Positions 1 through 52,206 of a DNA stretch of 64,000 nucleotides are shown here, in pieces. The first letter of the stretch is position 1. Each line of letters opens with the position of its first letter. Origin of the DNA: a virus. The DNA is taken from IMG/VR virus record IMGVR_UViG_3300035182_002586, positions 427,585 through 491,584 of that record; one strand, given 5' to 3'. The position numbers were made by a program, and so were the translations under genes. The notes under the pieces are model-generated. The model searched no databases. It saw nothing but the letters and a program-made list of their open reading frames with translations, and was not told the DNA's origin.

Positions 1-215
1 GCGTAGAACACGACCGTCTTGCCGCTGAGGCGGCCGTTCAGGAAGTAGAGAACGACCTGAACCTTGTGGCTGTAGTCGGCGCCGAGGGGCGTGATCGACT
101 TGATCTGCGCCGTCGTCCCCTTGACGACATCGCGGCCGTTGCAGCCCTTCTCGATGCGGACGCGGGCGCCAGCGGTGAGAGCGGGGAGGGCGGGGGTGGT
201 CGTCGTGGTGGTCAT
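1..215 (-). CDS. hypothetical protein (N-terminal part; gene continues beyond window edge)
   Basis: reverse-complement full start motif (GATGGATCG..GTTGTAGAGGGAAC) at ~216-252 ends on cat 213-215; N-term MTTTTTTPALPALTAGARVRIEKGC; absent from ORF track because no stop inside window. Confidence 0.5.
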   Translation of the reverse strand, partial: MTTTTTTPALPALTAGARVRIEKGCNGRDVVKGTTAQIKSITPLGADYSHKVQVVLYFLNGRLSGKTVVFY

Positions 216-269
216 GTTCCCTCTACAACGCGTGGGTGGGGACGATCCATCAGAGAAGAAGTACACCAA

Positions 270-677
270 TCAGATCCGGGACCACTTAGCCGAAGCCTCG
301 GGGCGGTCACCCTTGCGAAGCGCGTCACGGACGACTTCTGCGAACGCACGGGCCGAGGTACGCGACGAGAACCGACGCTTGCTGGACCAGCTACCGCCGA
401 GGAGGTCCTCGACCACGATGACGAACTCGTTCGAGATCGCCTGGACGTGGACGTAGTGGGTGGGGTAGCGACCCACGGTCGAGGCGCGCGCCATCTCGGC
501 GCCCACCGTCACGCGCTCCTGCTGCGCGGGAGTCATCGAGCGGTACTGGCTGCGGAGAGCCGCGAGGCGCTCGTTGTTCGCCTCGACCTCGCCGTCCGCC
601 GTCACGCCCTCGTAACCCTGGTGGTTCCAGATGAGGTCGTTGAGGTCCGCGTCCGAGAGCTTGGTGGAGGGGGCCAT
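270..677 (-). CDS. hypothetical protein 135 aa
   Basis: ORF track; reverse-complement full motif (GATGGATCG-N-GTTGTAGTAGGAGC-ATG) at ~678-715. Confidence 0.7.
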   Translation of the reverse strand: MAPSTKLSDADLNDLIWNHQGYEGVTADGEVEANNERLAALRSQYRSMTPAQQERVTVGAEMARASTVGRYPTHYVHVQAISNEFVIVVEDLLGGSWSSKRRFSSRTSARAFAEVVRDALRKGDRPEASAKWSRI

Positions 678-7509: not shown

Positions 7510-7743
7510 CTAGACCGGATCCTCGTCAGCAATCCGCTCCCACAGCGTCTTGATCATCCCATCGGAGAGGTCGACGCGTGGGAGCAAGGGCTTCTCTCCG
7601 CCTTCGAGCTGCACGTAGTGGGCATCGAAGAGCCCGCCGACACGGCTCGTCACAACACCCGTCTGCCCTGCATGCTGGCCACCCGTGATGCGCACTCGCG
7701 TACCCACAGGAAAGCCCTCTGGTATCTCTCTGCCCGGCATCAT
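7510..7743 (-). CDS. small KOW-like protein 77 aa
   Basis: VGTRVRITGGQHAGQTGVV resembles KOW motif; GGTACACCGGAGG upstream. Confidence 0.5.
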   Translation of the reverse strand: MMPGREIPEGFPVGTRVRITGGQHAGQTGVVTSRVGGLFDAHYVQLEGGEKPLLPRVDLSDGMIKTLWERIADEDPV

Positions 7744-7798
7744 CGTCACTGCCTCCGGTGTACCCATACCACACACCAAGTAGATCCTCGGAGGCCAC

Positions 7799-8599
7799 GT
7801 GATCACGTCGTGTCTCGCTACTGCCGGGTATGCCGCCAAGTTGCCCGCGCTCAAGGACCGCACGTTCACGTTCGGTCCCGGCCTCATCATTCTCTTCGGG
7901 CAGAACGGCTCGGGGAAGTCGACGTTACTGTCCATTCTCGCGAGCTACTCGGGGTGCTGGGAAGCTGGATGGACAGCGTTCTCTTCCAACTATGTGGGCT
8001 TCAACGACGCCCCGTTCCCGCACAGGCTCGCTACCCGTGGGAACCAAGCAGAGGTCGCGTGGGACGGCACCCCGAGCTTCTACAGCACGGGGCCCGAGTC
8101 CGGGCAGTCGGGGTTCAACAACGCCCTCGAAGACGGTGGTGAGGACGCGGACAACTACCTCCGGAGCCTCCTGGCTCCTGGTTCGGCAGGCCAAGGCCAG
8201 ATCCAGTGGCTCAATCAGATGGAGAAGAAGCTCTCCGCGCCTCCGGATCTTCTCCGGGAAGACGGGACTCTACGCATACGTGGTCACGGTGAGGTCGAGA
8301 GGTCGAGCGTCAATAGCCTGTGGGGGGAGGCCATCGACGGCTTCCAGTCACACATCCGGTCGCTGCCCCACACGGGACCCGTGACGGTCCTTCTCGACGA
8401 ACCCGACGCACACATGTCGCTGCCGAACCAGCACACCCTCTGGACGAAGGCCATCCCGCGCCTCTCCGTTGGGCGACAGGTCATCGTCGCCACGCACAGC
8501 GCATTCGCCCTATGCGCCCCGGACGCGACCATCATCGACCTCCAGCCGGGGTACGAGGATCGGTGCCGGAAGGTTCTTCGGGCTCTTCGCGAAGTCTGA
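7799..8599 (+). CDS. SMC/ABC-type (AAA_21-like) ATPase 266 aa
   Basis: Walker A GQNGSGKST, signature-like SAGQGQ, Walker B VLLDEPDAHM, H-loop ATHS; GGAGG-5nt-GTG. Confidence 0.75.
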   Translation: MITSCLATAGYAAKLPALKDRTFTFGPGLIILFGQNGSGKSTLLSILASYSGCWEAGWTAFSSNYVGFNDAPFPHRLATRGNQAEVAWDGTPSFYSTGPESGQSGFNNALEDGGEDADNYLRSLLAPGSAGQGQIQWLNQMEKKLSAPPDLLREDGTLRIRGHGEVERSSVNSLWGEAIDGFQSHIRSLPHTGPVTVLLDEPDAHMSLPNQHTLWTKAIPRLSVGRQVIVATHSAFALCAPDATIIDLQPGYEDRCRKVLRALREV

Positions 8600-16612: not shown

Positions 16613-17335
16613 AACAAGAAGTTGGTCGAAGAGGCTGTGCAGGCGAGCACATCCTACCGTCAGGTCGCCAAGCGTCTGGGGCTGTACCCTAAAGCTGCCA
16701 AAGCAGCCGTCTTGGAGAGTGGTGCGTCCACCGCTCACTTCGACTTCGGGCGACGATCATATAGCTACGTAGGCAAAACGTACAACCGTCTCACCATACA
16801 AGAAGTCATCAAGGACCCAAACGGTCGGTGGTTGTGCCGGTGTGACTGTTCGTGCGGAACGAAGGACGTACTGAAACGCCTCGACGGAGTTCTAAACGGG
16901 CACGTCCTCTCGTGTGGGTGCGCCTACCGTCACCGTCCCTCTATGTTTGGAGACGGGAACCCTGCTTACACAGGGTGTGGGGAACTGTCTGGATCTCGTG
17001 TGTACTGGATCAAAACGGAAGCAGCTCGTCGAGGGGTCCCATTTTCTGTGTCAAAGGAGTACCTCTGGCGGCTGTTCGACAAGCAAAATGGTCTCTGTGC
17101 CTTGTCGGGGGTGAAGCTAATGTTCGGTAGAGGGAACTCCAGACAGGGGGACGCATCCCTTGACCGTATCGACTCCTCTCGTGGTTATGTCGAGGGGAAC
17201 GTCCAATGGGTCCACAAGGACGTGAATAGAATCAAGTGGGAGTTCGATCAGGAGTACTTTCTGTCGATGTGTGACAGGATCAGCGCCCATACTCGTACAC
17301 GTAAACAAGTCGCCCCTGAAACGCTTGCTGAATGA
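16610..17335 (+). CDS. HNH homing endonuclease with N-terminal HTH
   Basis: SLDRIDSSRGYVEGNVQWVHKDVN HNH motif; AT-richer codon usage than neighbours. Confidence 0.8.
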   Translation: MNKKLVEEAVQASTSYRQVAKRLGLYPKAAKAAVLESGASTAHFDFGRRSYSYVGKTYNRLTIQEVIKDPNGRWLCRCDCSCGTKDVLKRLDGVLNGHVLSCGCAYRHRPSMFGDGNPAYTGCGELSGSRVYWIKTEAARRGVPFSVSKEYLWRLFDKQNGLCALSGVKLMFGRGNSRQGDASLDRIDSSRGYVEGNVQWVHKDVNRIKWEFDQEYFLSMCDRISAHTRTRKQVAPETLAE

Positions 17336-17822
17336 GCGGTTCGATAACTCGCCAATCACCCTGTGCAAGTCCCGTCCCAATTTTGGGCATGTGAATGCTG
17401 GCCTGCGTCCCCCCGAGCGTGTCGGGGAGCACCGACGTGATGAACTCCACGCGCCGGAGACAGTCCGCGAGGGCTTCGTAGCGGATCGGCGGGCCCTTGC
17501 CCCCACCTCGAAGCCCCTGCTGCGCGATCATGTTCGCGACGTACGTGTCGGGCGTCACCTGTACGAGCTGCACCTGACCGAGGGCGAAGTCACCGGTCGT
17601 GGTGATGATCTTCCCCTTCGTGGGGTTCTGCAACCGCATGCCCTTCAAGATCCGGTGCTCGGACCACTCGCGGTAACACGCCTCGGGCTGGGGCCAGCGC
17701 TTCGAGAGGGCCAAGACGAAGCCTGCGCCCCATTTCCCATCCGTGTTGCAGATGTGCGGGATGACGTGCACCCCCTTCGTCTGTGGGTCGGTGGCGTCTC
17801 CGCGCAGGTACGTGATCGGCAT
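17280..17822 (-). CDS. macro domain (ADP-ribose binding/hydrolase) protein
   Basis: GDATDP, VIPHICNTDGKWGAGFVLAL, IHMPKIGTGLAQGDW; GGTGTACGCTCGCCCCC-ATG. Confidence 0.75.
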   Translation of the reverse strand: MPITYLRGDATDPQTKGVHVIPHICNTDGKWGAGFVLALSKRWPQPEACYREWSEHRILKGMRLQNPTKGKIITTTGDFALGQVQLVQVTPDTYVANMIAQQGLRGGGKGPPIRYEALADCLRRVEFITSVLPDTLGGTQASIHMPKIGTGLAQGDWRVIEPLIQQAFQGRLVYVYEYGR

Positions 17823-23717: not shown

Positions 23718-24299
23718 ATGCCTCCGAAGAAGATCACGCTCCCCGAAGACGCGACGCTCCAGGCCGCACGAGATGCCGTCGAGTTCGGAAGAACTGGCCG
23801 CGAGGGGGTGATCTGCCCCTGCTGCGATCAGCAGGCTACGATGTACCGGCGCAAGGTCACCGCAGCCATGGCGAAGGTACTCCTGGCGCTCTACTGCCGG
23901 GATCTGACGGCACCCGGCGCTTGGGTTCGCATCCCGTCTCTTCTCAGCACGATGAAGGGGGCCGACGGCCAGGGAGGCGATTGGGGGAAACTCGCCCACT
24001 GGGACCTCGTAGAGAAGGGCACTGGGAAGCGTGAGGACGGCAGTAGCCGCACGGGCTACGCCCGAATCACGTCCTTCGGTCGGAAGTTCGCAGCACGGGG
24101 TGCCCGGATCCTACAGATCGCACACGTCTTCAACGACAAGTGCTTCGGTTACGACGGACCCCTCGTCACCATCGACGACTGCCTCGGGAAAGAAAACGCC
24201 TTCCTGTACAACGAGATCCTCTCGGGCGTCAGCATCCCAGAAGAGGACACCCGGGAGGAGCCGACCGAAGAGGCGAAGTTCTTCGAGTCCCTCATCTGA
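23718..24299 (+). CDS. hypothetical protein 193 aa
   Basis: GGTGTACCCCAGAGGT-ATG. Confidence 0.65.
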   Translation: MPPKKITLPEDATLQAARDAVEFGRTGREGVICPCCDQQATMYRRKVTAAMAKVLLALYCRDLTAPGAWVRIPSLLSTMKGADGQGGDWGKLAHWDLVEKGTGKREDGSSRTGYARITSFGRKFAARGARILQIAHVFNDKCFGYDGPLVTIDDCLGKENAFLYNEILSGVSIPEEDTREEPTEEAKFFESLI

Positions 24300-24667
24300 T
24301 GAGCCGCGAGAACCCCCAAGTCCAAGTGCTCCTGGCCCCCATCGACCAGGACTCCGCTGGAAGCTGCTTGCTTCTCGCACGCAACATCCGAGCGTGGGGG
24401 ATCTCGTGTCTCGTGGACGGGCGCGCCGTCCGCCTGAAAAAGAAGATCGAGTGGGCCGTGAAGATGGACGCGTTCTTCGTCCTCATCGTCGGGCCGGACG
24501 ACATCGCAGCCGGAGTGGTGCAGATCAAGGACCTCGACGAGAGCACCCAACAGACGGTCCCCCTCGCGAACACCCCCCGCTACCTCGCCGGCCAGCTCCT
24601 CGCCCCCGACGAGATGCGGCGGATCAAGCTGGACCGGGAAGTCGAAGACTTCAACAAGCAAGGCTGA
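24299..24667 (+). CDS. stand-alone class II aminoacyl-tRNA synthetase anticodon-binding (HGTP-like) domain protein
   Basis: VQVLLAPI..AGSCLLLARNIRAWGISCLVD..LKKKIEWAVKMDAFFVLIVGPDDIAAGVVQIKDL..QTVPL matches HisRS/ThrRS/ProRS C-terminal domain. Confidence 0.65.
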   Translation: MSRENPQVQVLLAPIDQDSAGSCLLLARNIRAWGISCLVDGRAVRLKKKIEWAVKMDAFFVLIVGPDDIAAGVVQIKDLDESTQQTVPLANTPRYLAGQLLAPDEMRRIKLDREVEDFNKQG

Positions 24668-30844: not shown

Positions 30845-32899
30845 CTACGAGGCGCCGTTGGTCGGCGTCGCCGGGGTCTTCTTGCCGACCTCGGCGCGGA
30901 TCTGGTTCCGCAGTGCCTCGGTCTCCGGGCTCCGCTTGGGGGCCGCCGAGAGCACCGTGTCAGCCGCGAACTTGTCCGACATCACCATCGTCAGCAGAGT
31001 CTCCAGGATGCCCGAGCCCTGGCCGTTCTGACTCCCGACGACGATGCGAGGCACCACATCGACCTTCGACTCACGGATGGCGTTCGAGAAGCCCTCCATG
31101 ACCTGCTGAGTGAGCTGGAACTTCGGACCACCGTAGGCAGCCACCTGCTCCTCGATCGCCACGGCCTGCGCGATACCGACGCGTGCAGCCCGGTCCGCCT
31201 CGGCTTCGGCGAGGTAGCGAACCTTGTCCGCTTCGGCGCGCGCCATCGCGCGAACCTTGTCGGCCTCCGCTTCTGCCATCGCACGGATCTGCGAGGCCGT
31301 CTGAATCGACCGCTGGTACTGCGCCTTGCCCTCGTTCTCCTGCGTCCGGATGGAGATCTCGGACTCGGTGAGCTGCTGCTGAGCCCTCGAAACCGCCTCG
31401 GCCTCGCGAAGCGCGCGTTCCTTCTCCGCAGCCTTCTGCTGGCGGTCGTAGGTGCCGATCTGCTCTTCGGCGATCTGACGCGAGCGGAGCTGCGTCAGGA
31501 TGGTGCCGATCTGCTTGTCGTTGTCGTCCGGCGACGGCGTGCCGATGAGGACCTCTTCCAGCTCCAGGTTGTACTGCGCGAACTTGGCCTTCATCCCCAC
31601 GGCCGACTCGCTCTGGATCTCGCTGCGCTCCTGAATGAGCTGGATCAGCGTCCGGGTCTGCGCCACGTTCTTGAAGTACGCGCTGACCATCGGGTCGAGC
31701 GTCTGGTTCACGAGGCGCTGGATGTCACCGAAGCGCTGGACAACGAGCGGCGCCTTGCGGTAGTCGATGTGCACGACAACCGAGAGCGGCAGCCAGGGCT
31801 CGAACGCGTCCTTGGTGATGAGCCCGACCTCGCAGAGGTTCTCGTCGAACTTGTGAGCAGACACTTCCGTCTCTTCCCACTTGAGGATGAAGTTCGTGGT
31901 CGGGACCGTGACGATCTTCCCGGCGTACGTGTTGAACGCGTACTTGCCCGGCATCAGAGCCTCGTCCCACACGCCGCGCTGACCCTTGCGAACCAGCTCC
32001 CCGTGCGAGTAGTCCGACCCCGAGAGGTCCGCGCCCGCCTCGCCCGTGTAGGAGACTACGACGCCGACCGTGCCGACCTCGATGACCGTCTTGGGGATCA
32101 GCTCGACCGTCGCGAAGAGCCGGTTGATGTAGTAGGTCCCGTCGACGAGCACCTGCATCTGGCGCCCACGACGGCCGCCCGCAGCCAGGAAGAGCAGAGG
32201 GTCCTGGAAGTTGTTGTGGTAGGAGGGCTTCTCCGGATCCTCTCCGACGAGCGGGGCGATCACGTCCCCGTGGGAGAGACCCGGGCCGTCGTGCACGGTC
32301 ACGACCCCGATCTTGTCGTCCGTGCCCCGGATCACGATCGGCTTGAAGCCATCACGCTCCCGGATGATGGTCGACATCTTCTCCAGCTCGTGCTTGTCAT
32401 TCGACAGGCTCAGCCCATACACCTCGTCCTCGGTGAAGACCGCGAAGAGGGCCGGGTTGATGGCGTACGTCCCCTCACGGAGGATCGTCATCTGCGGGCC
32501 CCGCTGACCTCCCCCTGCGAGGAACGCCCGAGCATCCCCGTAATTGGCGCACCCCACCACGCATCCTGCGAGGGTCTGCGTCGCTTCGAGCTGCTTGCCG
32601 TCGCGCGCGAAGACGTAGCCGATCTTGCCCTGCGGCACGGTGACCAGCGGCGCCTTGTGGACGCGGTACTGAATCGGCGTGAGCCAGTGGATGCCGCCAC
32701 GGAGCATGTCGGGCTGGTAGCCCGCCTCGCCCCCGAGGGCCATGAAGCCGCTCTTGACGGAGCCCTTGCGTGACCACCGTTTCTCAACGACGGCCACGCG
32801 ATTGTTCGGGATGACTCGTACCCCTGAGAGGAGCACAAAGAAGACGAGGAGGCCCAAGGCCACCTCGATGAGGAATGCCGGTTCGGGCAGGTGGTGCAT
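30845..32899 (-). CDS. flotillin / SPFH (band 7) family membrane protein 684 aa
   Basis: N-terminal TM, SPFH core (RVIPNNRVAVVEKRWS..PIQYRVHKAPL), long EA-repeat coiled coil (AEAEADKVRAMARAEADKVRYLAEAEADRAA); GGTGTACCACCGCGCC-ATG. Confidence 0.85.
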   Translation of the reverse strand: MHHLPEPAFLIEVALGLLVFFVLLSGVRVIPNNRVAVVEKRWSRKGSVKSGFMALGGEAGYQPDMLRGGIHWLTPIQYRVHKAPLVTVPQGKIGYVFARDGKQLEATQTLAGCVVGCANYGDARAFLAGGGQRGPQMTILREGTYAINPALFAVFTEDEVYGLSLSNDKHELEKMSTIIRERDGFKPIVIRGTDDKIGVVTVHDGPGLSHGDVIAPLVGEDPEKPSYHNNFQDPLLFLAAGGRRGRQMQVLVDGTYYINRLFATVELIPKTVIEVGTVGVVVSYTGEAGADLSGSDYSHGELVRKGQRGVWDEALMPGKYAFNTYAGKIVTVPTTNFILKWEETEVSAHKFDENLCEVGLITKDAFEPWLPLSVVVHIDYRKAPLVVQRFGDIQRLVNQTLDPMVSAYFKNVAQTRTLIQLIQERSEIQSESAVGMKAKFAQYNLELEEVLIGTPSPDDNDKQIGTILTQLRSRQIAEEQIGTYDRQQKAAEKERALREAEAVSRAQQQLTESEISIRTQENEGKAQYQRSIQTASQIRAMAEAEADKVRAMARAEADKVRYLAEAEADRAARVGIAQAVAIEEQVAAYGGPKFQLTQQVMEGFSNAIRESKVDVVPRIVVGSQNGQGSGILETLLTMVMSDKFAADTVLSAAPKRSPETEALRNQIRAEVGKKTPATPTNGAS

Positions 32900-32937
32900 G
32901 GGCGCGGTGGTACACCGAGTCCACCCCGAACGAGGCC

Positions 32938-34047
32938 CTACTTTCCCTTGCCGAGGAACTCCTTGATCGAGGGGAGGATCGCATCGCGGTCTGCGATCTG
33001 GCTCAGGGTCACCCGATCGTCGTCGGGGAATGCCGTTCGGAGGTCCTTGTAGAACTGCCCCGACCCGTACGGAGAATCGACCTGTCCGTACGAGAACACG
33101 TTCACGACGGGCAGGAGGCGATCGCGCAGGACCTTGATGCAATCCTCCGTGTCCTCAGTCGACCAGTTGTCCCCGTCGGAGAAGTGGAAAGGGTAGATGT
33201 TCCACGAAGATGAGGGGTAGTCCTTGTCGATGATCTTCATGCACAGGTCCAGAGCCGACGAGATCCTCGTCCCTCCAGACTCGCGCGTGTGGAAGAACGT
33301 GTGCCGGTCGACCTCGCGCGCCTCTGCGTCGTGGGTGATGAACCGGGTCTCGATGCCCTTGTACTGACGTCGGAGCCAGAGGTCGATCCAGAAGGACTCC
33401 AGGCGGACGATCTCTTTCTGGTCGTCGCCCATCGAGCCCGACACGTCCATCATGTAGATGACGACGGCCTGCGCCTGCGGCTTGAGGGTGATGTCCGGCG
33501 CGCGGTAGCGCCAGTCGTCTCGCACGGGCATGAGCACGGGCTGGTCGGGGTTGTAGTCCCCCGACGAGATGGCGCGCTTGAGCGTCTCCTTGTAGCTGCG
33601 CTTCATGTGGCGCAGCGACCCGGGCCCCACTCTGGAGATCCCCGTGTACTTGTTCGAGTCCTGGATGATGTTCTCTTTGCCCTTGTTCTCGATCTTCGGG
33701 AGTTGGAGTTCGTCTCCGAGCATGTCGGCGAGTTCATCCATGGAGATGTCCGCCTCGATCCCGTGCTTGTCCGTGTCCTTGCCGGCCTTCTTGCCCTTGC
33801 CCTTCTGGTCCGGGTCGCCGCCCACGGGATCGCCTACGTCCCCATCCCCCTGTCCTGCGCCCCCCGCCTGCTTGTCACCGTAGACGAAGCGCGGCATGTC
33901 GATCTGAGGGATCGGCACGGACACGACATCCTTGCCGACGCGGCCGAGAAGCTCCCCCGAAGAGATGTACTTCGAGAGGTTCCCGCGCACCTTCTTGCGG
34001 ATGATGTCCTTGAACCTCGAATGGTCTGCGCCGATGCGATTCGACAT
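32938..34047 (-). CDS. DUF444 / YeaH-YhbH family protein with VWA domain 369 aa
   Basis: VVIYMMDVSGSMGDDQK..GGTRISSALDL..IYPFHFSDGDNWS; GGTGTACCGGGAGGCTCC-ATG. Confidence 0.8.
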   Translation of the reverse strand: MSNRIGADHSRFKDIIRKKVRGNLSKYISSGELLGRVGKDVVSVPIPQIDMPRFVYGDKQAGGAGQGDGDVGDPVGGDPDQKGKGKKAGKDTDKHGIEADISMDELADMLGDELQLPKIENKGKENIIQDSNKYTGISRVGPGSLRHMKRSYKETLKRAISSGDYNPDQPVLMPVRDDWRYRAPDITLKPQAQAVVIYMMDVSGSMGDDQKEIVRLESFWIDLWLRRQYKGIETRFITHDAEAREVDRHTFFHTRESGGTRISSALDLCMKIIDKDYPSSSWNIYPFHFSDGDNWSTEDTEDCIKVLRDRLLPVVNVFSYGQVDSPYGSGQFYKDLRTAFPDDDRVTLSQIADRDAILPSIKEFLGKGK

Positions 34048-35561: not shown

Positions 35562-35969
35562 ATGGCCCTCCGCACGGTCGGAGATCCCCGGTCCGAAGTC
35601 GTGGTCCTTGGACCCCAAGGACGCATCGTGGGCCATATTTTCGTCGACCTCAGCCTCTACGGCATCGACGACCCCGTTCTCGATGACCAGGACCTACGAC
35701 CCTTCATCATCAACTGCCTCGACGGGATCATCCTCGTCGCCCACCGGCAGGTCGACCGCAAGTCGCGGTTCCTCGAACTCGGGCCCATGGATCTAGAGCA
35801 CGAGCCGGTTCTGCGCGAAGCCTTCGAGATGCCCGCCGCGCACATGTACACGAGCGACTACATCAGGCACACGCAAGCGGTGAACAACACCGAAGTCTTG
35901 CGGATCAAGGGGTTGGCCGGAGCCCATTTCGGACGACGGGCCCGTGCATCCAGTGGTCTCCCGAACTGA
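35562..35969 (+). CDS. hypothetical protein 135 aa
   Basis: ORF track; 3' end overlaps convergent RNA ligase gene. Confidence 0.4.
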   Translation: MALRTVGDPRSEVVVLGPQGRIVGHIFVDLSLYGIDDPVLDDQDLRPFIINCLDGIILVAHRQVDRKSRFLELGPMDLEHEPVLREAFEMPAAHMYTSDYIRHTQAVNNTEVLRIKGLAGAHFGRRARASSGLPN

Positions 35970-36567
35970 CGTGATCCTTTCGGACCCACTTTCCAACCGC
36001 GCGTGAGAACTCGCCCTCTCCGAAGCCGCAGGCCCACCGAACGACGACGCCCTCCCTCTCCCCACCGCAGGCTGACGGCTGCACCGCGAAGCGCTCAACG
36101 ATGGCCTGGAGGTCCTGCGCTCGGGGTGCTGGAGCGGGCTGTGCGAGAACCGGGACTGTCGGTAGCCCGAGGGACGCCGCACACTCCTCGACCTCGGCCC
36201 ACGAGTGCCAACGGAGTGTCTGCGCGTTGCGTACTCCGAAGACGGTCAGGTAGGCGGGCAGCGCCGTGTAGGCGATCGAGTGCTTCGCCCAGAGCCACTC
36301 CCCGAACACCTGGAGGTTGTCGGGGATGCTGTCGCGCAACGACGCCCACAGAGCCTTGAAGGCGTCGAAGCTCGGGTGCGACGGCGGCTTCCCGTGGCTG
36401 CGCGCAAAACACCCCTCCCGTTCGAGGCTCACGTTGCTGCCGTCGAGCTTCTCGGTGAAGACGAGGGGCACCTTGAGGAGCGAACCGACGCTCTTCATGC
36501 GCTTGTCGTCGCTCTCGCCTCCAGGGGAGAACGGGAAGTGGGAGGTGCGGGGGTACTTGAGGCTCAT
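35905..36567 (-). CDS. ATP-dependent RNA ligase (Rnl/RNA_ligase family)
   Basis: N-term KYPRTSHFPFS and nucleotidyltransferase motif I TEKLDGSN. Confidence 0.7.
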   Translation of the reverse strand: MSLKYPRTSHFPFSPGGESDDKRMKSVGSLLKVPLVFTEKLDGSNVSLEREGCFARSHGKPPSHPSFDAFKALWASLRDSIPDNLQVFGEWLWAKHSIAYTALPAYLTVFGVRNAQTLRWHSWAEVEECAASLGLPTVPVLAQPAPAPRAQDLQAIVERFAVQPSACGGEREGVVVRWACGFGEGEFSRAVGKWVRKDHVSSGDHWMHGPVVRNGLRPTP

Positions 36568-36570
36568 GGC

Positions 36571-37443
36571 TCAACTCCGGGGCTTCCGTAGTCGGACCCA
36601 CTCCTCCGTCGTTCCCTCGAACCCCGACGGCTTCGGCCCGCACCCTACCGGCACGTCCTCGAACTCCCCAGGCCCCGTCTGAACCAGATACGTCTCAGGT
36701 TCGGGCACAGGCTCGAAGGCCGCAGCGGGGGGCAGGCAAAGACAGTCTCGCGAACGTCCACAGGTGTCGCAGTAGTACCCGCCGTCCGTGATGACACAGA
36801 GAGGGGCGGGGGGCGGGTTCTTCCGGCGCATCTTCGGGACGGGCTTGCCACAGAACGGGCAGAACCGACCCTCAGGATCCGTGTCGTAGTGACCATCCGG
36901 CGCGAGGTCCGTGTGGTAGCTCGTGCGCCACCACGCCTTACCTGTGATGGAGTCTGGGTCGACCCTGACCGTAAAGACGATCGCCGGGTGCACCCGCGCC
37001 TCTTCGCAGCATTCGAGACGCGGAATCGCGTTCTTCTGGAATCGCTGGTACTCGTCGAAGAGGTCGCTAAGCTCCCACCGCTCCTGTTCGGACAGTGCCT
37101 CCCCGTCCTCGTGACGCGCCGCGCCTTCCTTTGCACTGAGAACGCGGAACCGTTCGATACGGGTCAAGTCCATGCGAAGGGAGGTACACCATCGGAGTGC
37201 GTCGCGAAGCTCCCCCGTCGGAGCCAGCTCCCGGTTCCCATCCTCGGGGGTAATGAGCACCAGCGCGGACCCGACGACGTTCGTGTTCGCCGTGTTGCAC
37301 ACGTGGAACCGGCGCTCTGCCCGATCGACCACGGTGGTGCCCGCATTCGGCCGCGCGAAGAGCTTCGTCTCTGCCGACCGGAGCATCACTGCCCATGCGT
37401 CCATCGAGGGCGAGAAGCGGCTGTCGAGGATCTCGTAGACCAT
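36571..37443 (-). CDS. hypothetical zinc-ribbon protein 290 aa
   Basis: internal ATG (TGATG overlap with upstream stop); CPFCGKP..CDTCG. Confidence 0.6.
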   Translation of the reverse strand: MVYEILDSRFSPSMDAWAVMLRSAETKLFARPNAGTTVVDRAERRFHVCNTANTNVVGSALVLITPEDGNRELAPTGELRDALRWCTSLRMDLTRIERFRVLSAKEGAARHEDGEALSEQERWELSDLFDEYQRFQKNAIPRLECCEEARVHPAIVFTVRVDPDSITGKAWWRTSYHTDLAPDGHYDTDPEGRFCPFCGKPVPKMRRKNPPPAPLCVITDGGYYCDTCGRSRDCLCLPPAAAFEPVPEPETYLVQTGPGEFEDVPVGCGPKPSGFEGTTEEWVRLRKPRS

Positions 37444-37919
37444 CAGAACACCGCCAGTGCCCCAGCCACGAAGCCCTCGGAGTAGACGACGAGGGCTTCG
37501 CGCTTCTTTTTGGTGAACGAGTCCCACTCGTTCACGGCGATCCCGAGCTTCCCGGTGGGGCCACCGTGGACCTTGATGTCCCAGATGTGATCGTCCCGGT
37601 CCAGAGACCAGAGGACTTCCTTGAGGTTCGCGGCCAGAGCTTCGAGAACCTTGACCTCGCTGCACGTCACCAGGCGAACGTAGCGGCCGCTGTACTCCTC
37701 CTGCCAGACGGGGCACTCGGGCCGCCCGTCGATGCCGCCCCAGCAGTAGTCGCTGAACGGGTCTCCGAGTCCCTTCCGAGAGCAGTCGATGTCCTCTGCG
37801 CTCGGCTTGTAGTCCCCACAGCCGGGGCAGACCTCGCCGCTCCCGACCCTAGGGGCACTCTCGCCTTCGCCTTCCGCCTTGGTGGCGTCCTCCCCGGGGA
37901 GCACTTCGTCGTCTTCCAT
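37443..37919 (-). CDS. hypothetical Cys-rich protein 158 aa
   Basis: GGTGTACTTTGGGGGC-ATG. Confidence 0.55.
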   Translation of the reverse strand: MEDDEVLPGEDATKAEGEGESAPRVGSGEVCPGCGDYKPSAEDIDCSRKGLGDPFSDYCWGGIDGRPECPVWQEEYSGRYVRLVTCSEVKVLEALAANLKEVLWSLDRDDHIWDIKVHGGPTGKLGIAVNEWDSFTKKKREALVVYSEGFVAGALAVF

Positions 37920-41533: not shown

Positions 41534-42544
41534 ATGACACACCTCGACAAGATCGGCTTCTACACCCTGCAAGACGAACGCGCCCGCACGTGTAGCACCA
41601 CGTCCCCCATGACACGGGCGTGCTTCATGATCACCGGGCGTTGTAACTTCCGTTGCGTTTATTGCAACGGCTCGGTGTGCGACCGGGACTTCACCGTCGA
41701 GCAGGTTGGCGCGCTGCTCACGGACCTAGCCAACCACCAGATCCAGGCGGTCCGCTTCACGGGCGGGGAGCCGACCTTGCACCGTGACCTGCTCACGATG
41801 GTTCGGACCGCGCGCGACCTCGGGATCCCGAAGATCGCCGTCTCGACGAACGGGGCCGCACGCCCCGAGCTGTACCGCGAGCTGGTCGAGGCCGGGGTCA
41901 ACGACTTCTCGATCTCGGCCGACTGCCAAGACCTGGAGCTGGCCGCGAAGCTCTCGGGCCGCCCGGGGACGTGGGACCGGGTGAAAGAGAACATCCGGAT
42001 GCTCTCGAAGCTCACCTACGTGATCATCGGGACCACCATCACGGAAGAGAACCTCGCGCAGATCCCGGAGACACTGGCGTTTCTCGGAGCCCTTGGGGTG
42101 GCCGACATCAAGCTGGCGACGGCGACACAGCTCAGGAGGGATATCCCCCTCGACATTCTCGACAAGATCTCGCCCGAGCTGCTCGAACGGATGCCCGTCC
42201 TACGCTACCGGATCGAGCACTACAAGGCCGGGAGACCGGTTCGGGGGCTCGTCGAGGGTCGGGACAGCCACCACTGCTGGTGGGTCCAGGACGACATCGT
42301 GCTGACCCCCGATGGCCACTACCCGTGCATCGTGTACCCCCGGGAGAAGGGGACGCCGATCGGACCCCTCGCGTCCGTGGCGGAGATGCGGGAAGCCCGC
42401 CTCGCGTGGGCGCGCAGCCGGGACACCCACGAGGATCCCATCTGCGTGCCCTACTGCATGGACATCTTCGCCGACTGCAACAAGCGGATCGAGGACCTCC
42501 AGGGGCTCGTCCCGGCTTCCAGGCTGAGGCGAACCACGGCCTGA
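41534..42544 (+). CDS. radical SAM protein, MoaA-like with C-terminal twitch-like Cys region
   Basis: CNFRCVYC, GGEPTL, VSTNGA; C-term HHCWW..DGHYPCIV..ICVPYC..DC; start 17 nt from divergent HNH start. Confidence 0.8.
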   Translation: MTHLDKIGFYTLQDERARTCSTTSPMTRACFMITGRCNFRCVYCNGSVCDRDFTVEQVGALLTDLANHQIQAVRFTGGEPTLHRDLLTMVRTARDLGIPKIAVSTNGAARPELYRELVEAGVNDFSISADCQDLELAAKLSGRPGTWDRVKENIRMLSKLTYVIIGTTITEENLAQIPETLAFLGALGVADIKLATATQLRRDIPLDILDKISPELLERMPVLRYRIEHYKAGRPVRGLVEGRDSHHCWWVQDDIVLTPDGHYPCIVYPREKGTPIGPLASVAEMREARLAWARSRDTHEDPICVPYCMDIFADCNKRIEDLQGLVPASRLRRTTA

Positions 42545-45548: not shown

Positions 45549-45917
45549 ATGGGTGCGACCCGGACCGTTCGCGTTGACGCGCTTCTCGTCGAGTACATGC
45601 AGGCCACCGCCTCGGTCAGAAAACTCCGAGATCGCACGAAGGTTCTGCAACGCCAGATCCTCTTGAAGGCGGGCTGGAAGGTCCACGCTCCGGGTTCCAC
45701 GGGATGGCTGAAAGGGATCGAGCGGCACGTCGCCTCGAACCCCAAGTCCAAGGTGACCGCCGGGTTCTACCAACGCTACTACGCGAACAAGGAGGTCTGG
45801 GTCGATCCCGTCATGAAGGATCTCCTCTTCATGGTGTCCTACGCCTGGACCCGGCATTTCGGGCGAATCAGCCGCTCCTGCGATCTCATCGCCAACGGTG
45901 TAGAGGCACGAGCATGA
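45549..45917 (+). CDS. hypothetical protein 122 aa
   Basis: GGTGTAAGCCCCTCAC-ATG. Confidence 0.6.
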   Translation: MGATRTVRVDALLVEYMQATASVRKLRDRTKVLQRQILLKAGWKVHAPGSTGWLKGIERHVASNPKSKVTAGFYQRYYANKEVWVDPVMKDLLFMVSYAWTRHFGRISRSCDLIANGVEARA

Positions 45918-46258
45918 AGAAGTGGACACCGTGGACGCGTGACCTCGCGTTCGACTTCATCGCGAGAGCCATCCCCGTGATGAAAGACGCCGGGTACGCG
46001 TGCGCCCTCGCGGGAAGTCTCCTGATCAAGAACGAGAGTCAGAAGGATCTGGATCTGGATCTCGTTCTCTTCCCCTACGACAACACCAAGTCACGCGTGG
46101 ACGATGCTCTCGAAGCCCTCCGGTCCCTCGGGATGGCCTGCGTGTTCGACGTGGCGTTCGTACACGAGAAGTGGGCGAACCAGGGGAGCACGGATCGAAA
46201 GCACGTCGAGGTGTGGGAGTACGACGGCCACCGCATCGATGTCTTCTGGCTGGAGTGA
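45914..46258 (+). CDS. minimal nucleotidyltransferase (Pol-beta superfamily)
   Basis: GSLLIKNESQKDLDLDLVLFP = hG[GS]x9-13DxD. Confidence 0.6.
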   Translation: MKKWTPWTRDLAFDFIARAIPVMKDAGYACALAGSLLIKNESQKDLDLDLVLFPYDNTKSRVDDALEALRSLGMACVFDVAFVHEKWANQGSTDRKHVEVWEYDGHRIDVFWLE

Positions 46259-46260
46259 AC

Positions 46261-46521
46261 ATGTCGAGTTACGGCGAACGAGTCCGCACTCTGCTCGAAC
46301 ACGGGACGGTCATCTGCGAGTGCCACACGTGCATGGGGTCGGACGGCACCGCTGTCCTCCGCATCCTGTGGGACGATGGACACATCAGCGAGATGCCTTA
46401 CTACAAGGTCGTCCCGTCGGACAAACCCGGACGCCCGCTCTTCAACGGGCAGCCCGCAACGGACGGCCGAACGCCGCGAGTACCGCAGCATCCCGTTCAA
46501 GCACCTGCACGGGAGGTATGA
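46261..46521 (+). CDS. hypothetical protein 86 aa
   Basis: ORF-track frame; stop lies in loop of CGGGAGGTA-10-TACCTCCCG hairpin (~46510-46537). Confidence 0.5.
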   Translation: MSSYGERVRTLLEHGTVICECHTCMGSDGTAVLRILWDDGHISEMPYYKVVPSDKPGRPLFNGQPATDGRTPRVPQHPVQAPAREV

Positions 46522-46586
46522 CGCGACGTACCTCCCGGACCCCCTTCCTCGACACACGAGCCCTCTCACCCTTCCCTGAGGCCACG

Positions 46587-47105
46587 ATGATGCCCCGCAA
46601 GAACATGACGATCCGTGGGAACTACGCTCTCTTCTGGGGCCAGTGGCCGTCCAACTGGGAGGCGTCCCCCTTCACCATCGACGGCAAGAGCTACACGTGC
46701 GTCGAGCAGTGGATGATGGCGGAGAAGGCTCGCCTCTTCGGCGACACCGTGGCGGAGGCCCGCATCATGGCGACTGCGGACCCCGCGGATCAGAAGCGCT
46801 ACGGCCGTGGCGTGAAGGGGTACGTCGAGGACCAGTGGGCGGCTGTCCGCTACCAGATCGTGCTTCGAGGCGTCGTCGAGAAGTACAGGCAGAACGAGCA
46901 CTTGCGGGAGAAGCTCCTCGCGACGGGAGACCTCCAGTTCGTCGAGGCGTCCCCCGAAGACCGGGTGTGGGGCATCGGCATGCGCGCGACGGATCCCGGT
47001 GCCGACAACCCCCGCCAGTGGCGGGGCCAGAACCTCCTCGGCAAGGCCACGACGGAAGCGCGGGAGACCATCCGCGCGGAGATGGCCCTCGCAGGCATCC
47101 CGTGA
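46587..47105 (+). CDS. NADAR (YbiA/DUF1768) domain protein
   Basis: NYALFWGQWPSNWE..YTCVEQWMMAEKARLFGD..RYGRGV..RVWGIGM..GQNLLGKA. Confidence 0.8.
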   Translation: MMPRKNMTIRGNYALFWGQWPSNWEASPFTIDGKSYTCVEQWMMAEKARLFGDTVAEARIMATADPADQKRYGRGVKGYVEDQWAAVRYQIVLRGVVEKYRQNEHLREKLLATGDLQFVEASPEDRVWGIGMRATDPGADNPRQWRGQNLLGKATTEARETIRAEMALAGIP

Positions 47106-51852: not shown

Positions 51853-52206
51853 GTGTCGTTCGAGGATACCCTCACGGACGACAACCCACTGGCCGACGAG
51901 ACCATCAGCGAGGGTGAGCTGGAGGTCTACCTGTCCGTGTTCCTCGGCGATCTGTTGACCAAGCTGGACCCCCGCGAGCGAAACGTCGTCGACCGTAGGT
52001 TCACGGACAACCCCGAAACACTCGAAGAGATCGCCAACAGCTTCGGCCTGTCGCGGGAGCGCGTCCGTCAGATCGAGGAGCGCTGCCTGAACAAGATCAG
52101 GGACGCCATGGCGAAAGGCGGCCACTTGGGCGTCCCGGGGACCTGGCGCATCGGCCTCGACGACTGGCCCGTGGTCATGGACAAGATGACACTGGTGGGG
52201 GAGTGA
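51853..52206 (+). CDS. sigma-70 region 4-like HTH protein (sigma-like factor fragment)
   Basis: LDPRERNVVDRRF..ETLEEIANSFGLSRERVRQIEERCLNKIR. Confidence 0.65.
   Translation: MSFEDTLTDDNPLADETISEGELEVYLSVFLGDLLTKLDPRERNVVDRRFTDNPETLEEIANSFGLSRERVRQIEERCLNKIRDAMAKGGHLGVPGTWRIGLDDWPVVMDKMTLVGE

Follow-up and report, generated by a model that had tools for sequence, protein, structure and literature searches.

The viral record IMGVR_UViG_3300035182_002586 contains, within the 64-kb stretch analysed here (positions 427,585 to 491,584 of the record, hereafter the window), a gene that encodes a 172-residue protein with a NADAR domain (Table 1). The comparisons presented below establish that the protein belongs to the NADAR family, has its fold and retains all functional residues, and the gene encodes a real NADAR that, judging from homologues tested by others, is apparently an active enzyme. 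On sequence criteria the protein is a member of the Glu-type stand-alone NADAR family (the SCO5665/Pn-NADAR class). We consider it somewhat more probable than not that this NADAR serves as an orphan, antitoxin-like counter-defence against base-ADP-ribosylating toxins of the host. The enzymatic part of this reading is more secure than the biological part: activity is carried over from homologues assayed elsewhere, and both the part played in counter-defence and the toxin concerned are drawn from genomic context and precedent.

Family, fold and active site

The initial annotation had recognized a NADAR protein from four hallmark motifs and had suggested a hidden Markov model search against the Pfam family. 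The protein does contain all four motifs (residues 11-20, GNYALFWGQW; residues 36-53, YTCVEQWMMAEKARLFGD; residues 126-132, RVWGIGM; residues 147-154, GQNLLGKA), and the assignment is borne out by the Pfam search, in which the NADAR profile (PF08719, DUF1768; gathering score 35.1) matched with 161.7 bits (E=2.3e-47) from its position 13 to its end at position 163. The protein also matches PHROG 1017 (E=1.5e-47), a family of unknown function. Among solved structures, the NADAR of P. nicotianae (Pn-NADAR; 8BAU) was found at E=6e-17 with the single sequence and at E=2e-35 with a profile of the query's clade; with the clade profile, 8BAU scored 124.9 bits and E. coli YbiA (2B3W) 67.3 bits, and no other PDB entry matched. 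An AlphaFold2 model made from 59 homologues has a mean predicted local distance difference test score (pLDDT) of 96.5 and adopts the YbiA-like alpha+beta fold, in which a helical core is flanked by small beta hairpins. When this model was compared with the PDB using Foldseek, the sole significant matches were 8BAU (template modelling (TM) score 0.83) and YbiA 2B3W (TM 0.72).

Loss of a catalytic Glu or Asp, which had been named as evidence that would speak against the assignment, is not observed. E40, K47 and E120 are present and, like D125 and W128, are invariant in the 59 homologues, with W17, S22, W24 and K70 conserved in at least 90% of them. E40 and K47 align to E88 and K95 of the E. coli C7 NADAR and to E43 and K50 of Pn-NADAR, and E120, which lies within VEASPEDRVWGIG, aligns to E125 of Pn-NADAR and E167 of SCO5665. 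The residues W17, S22, W24, K70, D125 and W128 have their counterparts, all at the same offset, in W53, S69, W71, K117, D172 and W175 of SCO5665, as read through the Streptomyces homologue P0101 (probably SCO5665-like). Activity is lost in the NADAR mutants K95A, D171A/N and E167D/Q; E88Q is inactive, and E88A has a minor effect in vitro yet does not rescue cells (PMC11543638; PMC12945103). The conserved Glu positions the ribose and the conserved Lys binds the diphosphate (PMC11543638), with the remaining active-site residues implicated by docking (PMC11543638; PMC12945103).

Class of the protein and comparison with known NADARs

The NADAR superfamily comprises four classes distinguished by catalytic residue and accessory elements, namely NADAR proper, YbiA-type, T4-type phage NADAR and DarG1 (PMC11543638; PMC12945103). 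Because a Glu occupies the catalytic position, the query is neither of the DarG1 type nor of the T4 AdfN type. This Glu, together with an aromatic residue at the position of W53, is what characterizes the Glu-type class, and both are found in the query. The class is further associated with an electropositive tunnel that N-terminal loops and short helices build around the core; the query is without the actinobacterial N-terminal region, the conserved part of its NADAR domain starts near residue 8 of 172, and its model contains no additional N-terminal element. Identity to the query is 50-55% for stand-alone bacterial NADARs (Streptomyces, Nocardia, Planctomycetota, Burkholderia), 38-43% for the NADAR of coliphage A73 (a member of Vequintavirinae, the subfamily of the tested NADAR-Bas60), 34% for Pn-NADAR and 29% for E. 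coli YbiA, and the match to T4 gp30.3 is not significant (BLASTP E=0.05). The query also stands apart from YbiA in a neighbour-joining tree, a small one built with proxies and leaving out the DarG1 and E. coli sigma70-linked NADAR references. Its clade is compact, lacking both the N-terminal region and an 11-residue insert after FWG that are seen in Streptomyces and Nocardia homologues, and other bacterial homologues are intermediate between this compact clade and the actinobacterial forms.

The curated NCBIfam model TIGR02464 gives the protein another name, riboflavin-intermediate N-glycosidase (147.8 bits against a cut-off of 73.7). Taken at face value, this name would make the protein a YbiA/COG3236-type enzyme of metabolic damage control that hydrolyses reactive early intermediates of riboflavin biosynthesis. 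Homologues named as ribA/ribD-fused or GTP cyclohydrolase II proteins agree with such a role, as does the analogous chemistry, in which a ribosyl N-glycoside is attached to an exocyclic amine. However, TIGR02464 covers the wider NADAR superfamily and cannot separate its classes, the query is far closer to non-YbiA NADARs than to YbiA (125 versus 67 bits), no riboflavin gene was found in the window or in the relatives' loci, and a phage has no evident need to hydrolyse riboflavin intermediates. Moreover, the names are transferred from fusion proteins, and YbiA itself removes ADP-ribose from guanine and cytosine. We regard damage control as the least probable of the functions considered here. 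Phage NADARs in GenBank are often annotated as 'GTP cyclohydrolase II', 'YbiA' or 'COG3236' (KU574722/NC_041878, LT960551, LT960552), and the first of these names looks like annotation transfer from RibA-NADAR fusion proteins.

The nearest characterized counterparts of the query are SCO5665, Pn-NADAR and the E. coli sigma70-linked NADAR, with which it shares the fold, the catalytic Glu and the Ser/Trp/Glu/Lys/Lys/Asp/Trp set at constant spacing. The query and its relatives in the phage clade differ from SCO5665-type proteins in being shorter and in residing on viral-type contigs and not on bacterial chromosomes. Among phage proteins, NADAR-Bas60 and NADAR-Bas32 (Johannesman, Carlson and LeRoux 2024) resemble the query as stand-alone NADARs that are not AdfN, and they group with bacterial NADARs that are neither YbiA nor DarG1. 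These two proteins rescue cells from DarT1 toxicity and restore the growth of phages restricted by DarTG1 (PMC11257639). The NADAR of phage A73, used here as a proxy for NADAR-Bas60, shares with the query the motif VEASPxDRxWGIG; as annotated it has 214 residues, about 50 more at the N-terminus than the query. Unlike NADAR-Bas60 and NADAR-Bas32, the query falls in a separate clade known only from metagenomes.

The remaining classes are less similar to the query. AdfN (T4 gp30.3), an orphan antitoxin-like enzyme that removes ADP-ribose from guanine, is a core-only NADAR, as is the query, and is encoded by a lytic phage. In the alignment, however, T4-type NADARs have a His at the position of E120, and they are specific for guanine-linked ADP-ribose (G-ADPr). 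DarG1 of E. coli C7 and G. lovleyi has in common with the query the superfamily and the Glu/Lys pair (E88/K95, equivalent to E40/K47), but it has the Asp D171, a basic beta1-beta2-alpha1 N-terminal extension and an adjacent DarT1, none of which is a feature of the query; DarG1 removes G-ADPr only. YbiA (COG3236) shares the fold, a Glu-type active site and the TIGR02464 match, but is without the loop found in the query between the WGxG and NLLG motifs, and it is encoded in a LexA-controlled chromosomal operon (PMC11125620).

Proposed function and genomic setting

All four NADAR families remove G-ADPr from single-stranded DNA and RNA in vitro; Glu-type NADAR, including its stand-alone members, and YbiA also remove cytosine-linked ADP-ribose (C-ADPr), from both DNA and RNA in the case of the stand-alone proteins. 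NADARs are inactive on thymidine-linked ADP-ribose and on ADP-ribose at phosphate ends. In the mechanism that we propose for the query, the ADP-ribose moiety would bind in the helical cleft, with the diphosphate held by K47 together with K70 and W128 and the distal ribose positioned by E40 and D125. E120 would catalyse the hydrolytic cleavage of the N-glycosidic bond that joins ribose C1'' to an exocyclic amine on the nucleobase, yielding free ADP-ribose and the unmodified base. The substrate would be the N2 of guanine, and probably cytosine too for a Glu-type enzyme, on single-stranded DNA or RNA. In this way the NADAR would clean phage nucleic acid that base-ADP-ribosylating toxins of the host have modified, with DarT1 as the established example of such a toxin and pierisin/ScARP-like or YarT-like enzymes as alternatives. 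There is precedent for the outcome, as T4 AdfN neutralizes DarTG1 (PMC11257639). The connection to reversal of DarT1 activity that the initial annotation had drawn stands insofar as the family is known to remove G-ADPr; the query itself is of the Glu-type stand-alone kind, not of the DarT1-associated DarG1 type.

The window has a G+C content of 64-65% and is dense with small open reading frames (ORFs), most of them without family assignment. The NADAR gene sits in a long co-directional block of such genes, and its neighbours are unrelated small ORFs. Two metagenomes contain an identical NADAR protein. Its closest relatives (66-75% identity) were found only on phage-like metagenomic contigs of 43-439 kb, more distant ones (57-62%) occur on contigs listed at up to 448 kb, and relatives in IMG/VR lie on viral contigs of 125-465 kb. 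Cellular relatives reach at most 51% identity among representative genomes and come from Actinomycetota, Planctomycetota, Myxococcota and Bacillota. A megablast search of 50,697 phage records returned no close DNA relative of the window.

When all window proteins were compared by tblastn with the 20-kb loci of three relatives, the NADAR was the sole gene in common. The neighbourhoods of the relatives differ each time, with a methyltransferase and a CTP_transf_like protein in one, a PurA/PurZ-like adenylosuccinate synthetase and ThyX in another, and RNA ligase with a protein kinase, Tpt1/KptA with an AcrVA2-like protein, or DnaB, PolA and an AlkB-like protein in others. Since no neighbour is conserved between loci, the NADAR appears to be a stand-alone mobile accessory gene. 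A minimal nucleotidyltransferase encoded immediately upstream, as stated in the initial annotation, is confirmed as such by its fold, but it is not kept next to the NADAR in relatives: hidden Markov model searches of six relatives found neither the nucleotidyltransferase family nor the macrodomain described below within 10 kb of the NADAR. A nucleotidyltransferase-NADAR module was accordingly rejected.

PurA/PurZ-like adenylosuccinate synthetases lie 1-9 kb from the NADAR in two relatives (L004-L006, 8025..9248; L096, 1..1081), accompanied in L004 by ThyX and a gene resembling deoxynucleoside monophosphate kinases, and L004 and L096 may be phages with 2-aminoadenine DNA (Z-genomes). Because two relatives carry the NADAR near such synthetases, one might speculate that phages with 2-aminoadenine DNA, which would offer a second N2-amino target, are in particular need of a NADAR. 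In relative L097, Tpt1/KptA (PTS_2-RNA) is encoded 2 kb upstream of the NADAR (7609..8214) and an AcrVA2-like gene lies at the locus edge (1..536), an arrangement that suggests an anti-defence or RNA-repair island.

RNA repair was also considered as the function of the NADAR itself, which would then clear ADP-ribose by-products or base-ADP-ribosylated RNA during tRNA or RNA repair together with RNA ligase and Tpt1/KptA-type enzymes. The window encodes an RNA ligase 10 kb upstream of the NADAR, RNA ligase (L096) or Tpt1/KptA (L097) lies 2-6 kb from the NADAR in relatives, NADARs act on G-ADPr in RNA, and the association has been mentioned by Iyer et al. (PMC9503650). This linkage is nevertheless loose and not conserved, the window was found to contain no Tpt1 gene, and NADARs are inactive on ADP-ribose linked to 5'- or 3'-phosphates, which includes the 5'-phosphate product of Tpt1/KptA-type enzymes. 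We therefore judge a role in RNA repair to be very improbable.

We searched the window for ADP-ribosyltransferases (ARTs) and for other genes of ADP-ribose metabolism with Pfam on ~130 ORFs and with PHROGs and PADLOC on subsets of these, and found no ART and no NAD-salvage, SLOG or Nudix gene; nor is an ART annotated within 10 kb of the NADAR in six relatives. These results bear on two further explanations. According to the first, the NADAR partners an ART encoded by the phage itself, from which it would protect phage nucleic acid or whose action it would limit in time, in the manner of an antitoxin. Large phages often encode ARTs, with T4 Alt located 3 kb from gp30.3, pairs of ART and YbiA (YarT) exist in bacteria (PMC11125620), and the view here is limited to 64 kb of a larger viral record. 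The failure to find an ART in the window or near the relatives' NADARs argues against such a partnership, to which we assign as low a likelihood as to RNA repair.

According to the second, the NADAR is a scavenger of signals or toxins that hydrolyses low-molecular-weight derivatives of NAD+ and ADP-ribose, such as the cyclic ADP-ribose-type signals of TIR, sirtuin and ART effectors, and thereby blunts NAD-based defence. From how abundant NADAR, Macro, SLOG and Nudix domains are in large phages, and from their co-occurrence, Iyer et al. (2022) proposed that in phages these domains act predominantly as such scavengers (PMC9503650), and the window fits this picture in holding a NADAR and a Macro protein without an ART or DarT-like partner. 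On the other hand, the search of the window yielded neither a SLOG nor a Nudix partner, all NADARs tested since 2023, three phage ones included, act on base-linked ADP-ribose of nucleic acids, and we found no report in the literature of NADAR activity on cyclic ADP-ribose signals. Scavenging is in our estimation unlikely, if the strongest of the alternatives.

Several considerations weigh against counter-defence by removal of base-linked ADP-ribose, the reading that we favour. Protection in cells is specific to subtype: YbiA and T4 gp30.3, although enzymatically active in vitro, gave uninfected cells no protection from DarT1 (PMC11125620). The query is without the basic N-terminal extension of DarG1, the actinobacterial N-terminal region and the 11-residue insert, and because it lacks these regions its affinity for nucleic acid may be lower. 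To these points are added the riboflavin-related name given by TIGR02464 and the proposal of Iyer et al. (2022) that phage NADARs mainly process low-molecular-weight ADP-ribose derivatives (PMC9503650). Moreover, the presence of DarT1 or of another guanine- or cytosine-directed ART in the host is assumed, and the source, which we infer to be likely a very large phage, showed no tRNA and no structural gene in the window.

It is also conceivable that the compact Glu-type clade provides a dual guanine/cytosine de-ADP-ribosylase whose target is, in place of DarT1, a host defence that has yet to be described, for which pierisin/ScARP-like enzymes, YarT-like enzymes and PDC-M42 would be candidates; we hold this to be decidedly unlikely. 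PDC-M42C, a candidate-defence component in PADLOC, matches the query NADAR with E=2.9e-42, and bacterial homologues of the query sit in the candidate multi-gene defence system PDC-M42, on which we found no literature. The NCBI model 'NADAR family anti-phage protein' scored 41.9 bits with the query, below its cut-off of 240 bits.

The window encodes a second candidate ADP-ribose hydrolase, a macrodomain protein that had been noted previously. Its identity is confirmed by a match to SCO6735 of S. coelicolor (5E3B; E=2e-43, ~55% identity over aligned blocks), although it lies on the minus strand and is unlinked to the NADAR, being 29 kb away and on the opposite strand; Pfam gives no match for this protein. 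SCO6735-type macrodomains are characterized by a Gln (Gln85) in place of the Lys of DarG and TARG1 and by a long basic mobile loop (PMC9411070). In the alignment to 5E3B the window protein keeps I24 (V25 in SCO6735), N26 (N27), Q101 (Q85), R105 (K89) and G151 (G128), and thus has the Val/Ile25, Asn27, Gln85 and Gly128 of this type as well as the basic mobile loop (R105/K109). For SCO6735, both cleavage of ADP-ribose linked to thymidine in DNA and rescue of cells from DarT have been demonstrated (PMC9411070). The suggestion that this virus carries tools against both thymine- and guanine-directed ADP-ribosylation is consequently supported at the level of candidates, an SCO6735-type protein for the former and the NADAR for the latter, but the two do not form a module. 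The best phage matches of the macrodomain are from Streptomyces phages, with only 36-40% identity. A phage macrodomain, AdfM, is known to counter DarTG2 (PMC13309987); AdfM is DarG2-like (Lys type), whereas the window macrodomain belongs to the Gln-type SCO6735 subclass.

More than 48% of medium and jumbo phages encode a NADAR domain, and in large DNA viruses the combination of NADAR with Macro is found above chance expectation (PMC9503650). In our phage collection, 737 records have a homologue of the window NADAR and 124 a homologue of the window macrodomain, and jumbo phages, among them Pectobacterium phage CBB and the Yersinia phages fHe-Yen9-03 and fHe-Yen9-04, encode a NADAR and a macrodomain ~14 kb apart. 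The underlying idea has thus already been published, in the form of AdfN, AdfM and NADAR-Macro co-occurrence (PMC11257639, PMC13309987, PMC9503650). What is mildly new is only the compact, metagenome-only clade, confined to large phage-like contigs and paired with a Gln-type SCO6735-like macrodomain. If the protein is active, a divergent, metagenome-only NADAR clade from very large phages would join the orphan, antitoxin-like NADAR counter-defences beyond coliphages, and the NADAR and the Gln-type macrodomain would make up a pair of enzymes directed at base ADP-ribosylation. Since Glu-type NADARs remove the recently described ADP-ribosylation of cytidine, the clade could also help to test the importance of C-ADPr in the conflict between phage and host. 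The practical value is modest: with concept, enzymology and co-occurrence statistics already published, the query is a confirmatory example and no discovery.

Start site of the NADAR gene and other genes of the window

Table 1. Positions in the window of the NADAR gene, its key codons and other features (1 is the first nucleotide of the window)
Feature	Position	Strand	Description
NADAR-domain protein	46587..47105	+	172 amino acids + stop; Glu-type stand-alone NADAR family by sequence; Pfam, PHROG, PDB, AlphaFold2/Foldseek, residue conservation
NADAR W17 codon	46635-7	+	
NADAR S22 codon	46650-2	+	
NADAR W24 codon	46656-8	+	
NADAR E40 codon	46704-6	+	
NADAR K47 codon	46725-7	+	
NADAR K70 codon	46794-6	+	
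NADAR E120 codon	46944-6	+	
NADAR D125 codon	46959-61	+	
NADAR W128 codon	46968-70	+	
Shine-Dalgarno-like TGAGG	46577..46581	+	Spacing of 5 nt from GAGG to ATG 46587; read from sequence
RNA hairpin	46510..46537	+	11-bp stem and 6-nt loop; spans upstream TGA and alternative ATG; centroid fold
SCO6735-type (ALC1/TARG1-like) macrodomain	17280..17822	-	180 amino acids; PDB 5E3B, PHROG 335
Minimal nucleotidyltransferase	45914..46258	+	114 amino acids, unnamed family; G34-S35...D47xD49...D94xK96...D109; Pol beta/lambda palm
ABC/AAA_21-type ATPase	7799..8599	+	
Class-II aminoacyl-tRNA synthetase anticodon-binding domain	24299..24667	+	122 amino acids, stand-alone; HisRS/ThrRS type
DUF444/YeaH-YhbH and SPFH/Band-7 proteins	30845..34047	-	DUF444 full-length (NCBIfam NF003711, 587 bits); SPFH/Band-7 protein of ~700 amino acids
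RNA ligase	35905..36567	-	PF09414, E=1.4e-29
Two unannotated genes	36571..37904	-	Follow the RNA ligase
Radical SAM enzyme	41534..42544	+	
Sigma-70 region 4 protein	51853..52206	+	117 amino acids, region 4 only (E=5.6e-18; PHROG 'RNA polymerase sigma factor')

The start of the NADAR gene at 46587 is equivalent to the start position of the proteins of close relatives. An alternative in-frame ATG at 46518-46520 overlaps the TGA of the upstream gene (46519-46521) as ATGA, and a 195-residue form that begins there is conceivable; the protein has an isoelectric point of 8.7. The 23 extra residues are Arg-rich and have no counterpart in relatives, whose NADAR starts also overlap an upstream stop but correspond in position to 46587. 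The hairpin that spans this region has a GGGAGG-rich 5' arm and barely beats shuffled sequences (z = -1.8 for a 106-nt stretch, with 6 of 200 shuffles folding as well). Its significance is weak; it may be an attenuator or an element of translational coupling.

The nucleotidyltransferase belongs to a family with at least 453 clusters at E<=1e-3 in an exhaustive phmmer search, in the alignment of which G34, D47, D49, D94, K96 and D109 are invariant. Its AlphaFold2 model has a pLDDT of 94.7, and Foldseek matched the model to the palm of Pol lambda/beta with probability 1.00. Pfam, PHROGs, NCBIfam and PADLOC have no entry for this family, and it is missing from all records of cultured phages.

The RNA ligase and the two unannotated genes that follow it may constitute an RNA-repair cassette, ~10 kb from the NADAR gene. 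The DUF444/YeaH protein is encoded directly next to the SPFH/Band-7 protein; its homologues are found in phages of Thermus and Bacillus and in huge uncultured phages, and one 595-kb 'uncultured phage' (LR756511) is among the best phage matches of both this protein and the NADAR. Bacterial YeaH pairs with PrkA and SpoVR. The protein consisting of sigma-70 region 4 may be a host-takeover or anti-sigma-like factor. The radical SAM enzyme gives partial matches to MoaA-like proteins and prokaryotic viperins, far under the cut-offs, and the ABC/AAA_21-type ATPase has P-loop and signature regions like those of the defence ATPases AriA, PtuA and GajA (PADLOC). A metallophosphoesterase is also among the recognizable genes of the window. 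Finally, in a pooled sweep of 98 small window ORFs, Pfam DUF488-N3a (E=3.8e-07) and DUF488-N3i matched one ORF, and a DUF488 protein is encoded 6 kb from the NADAR in relative L098.

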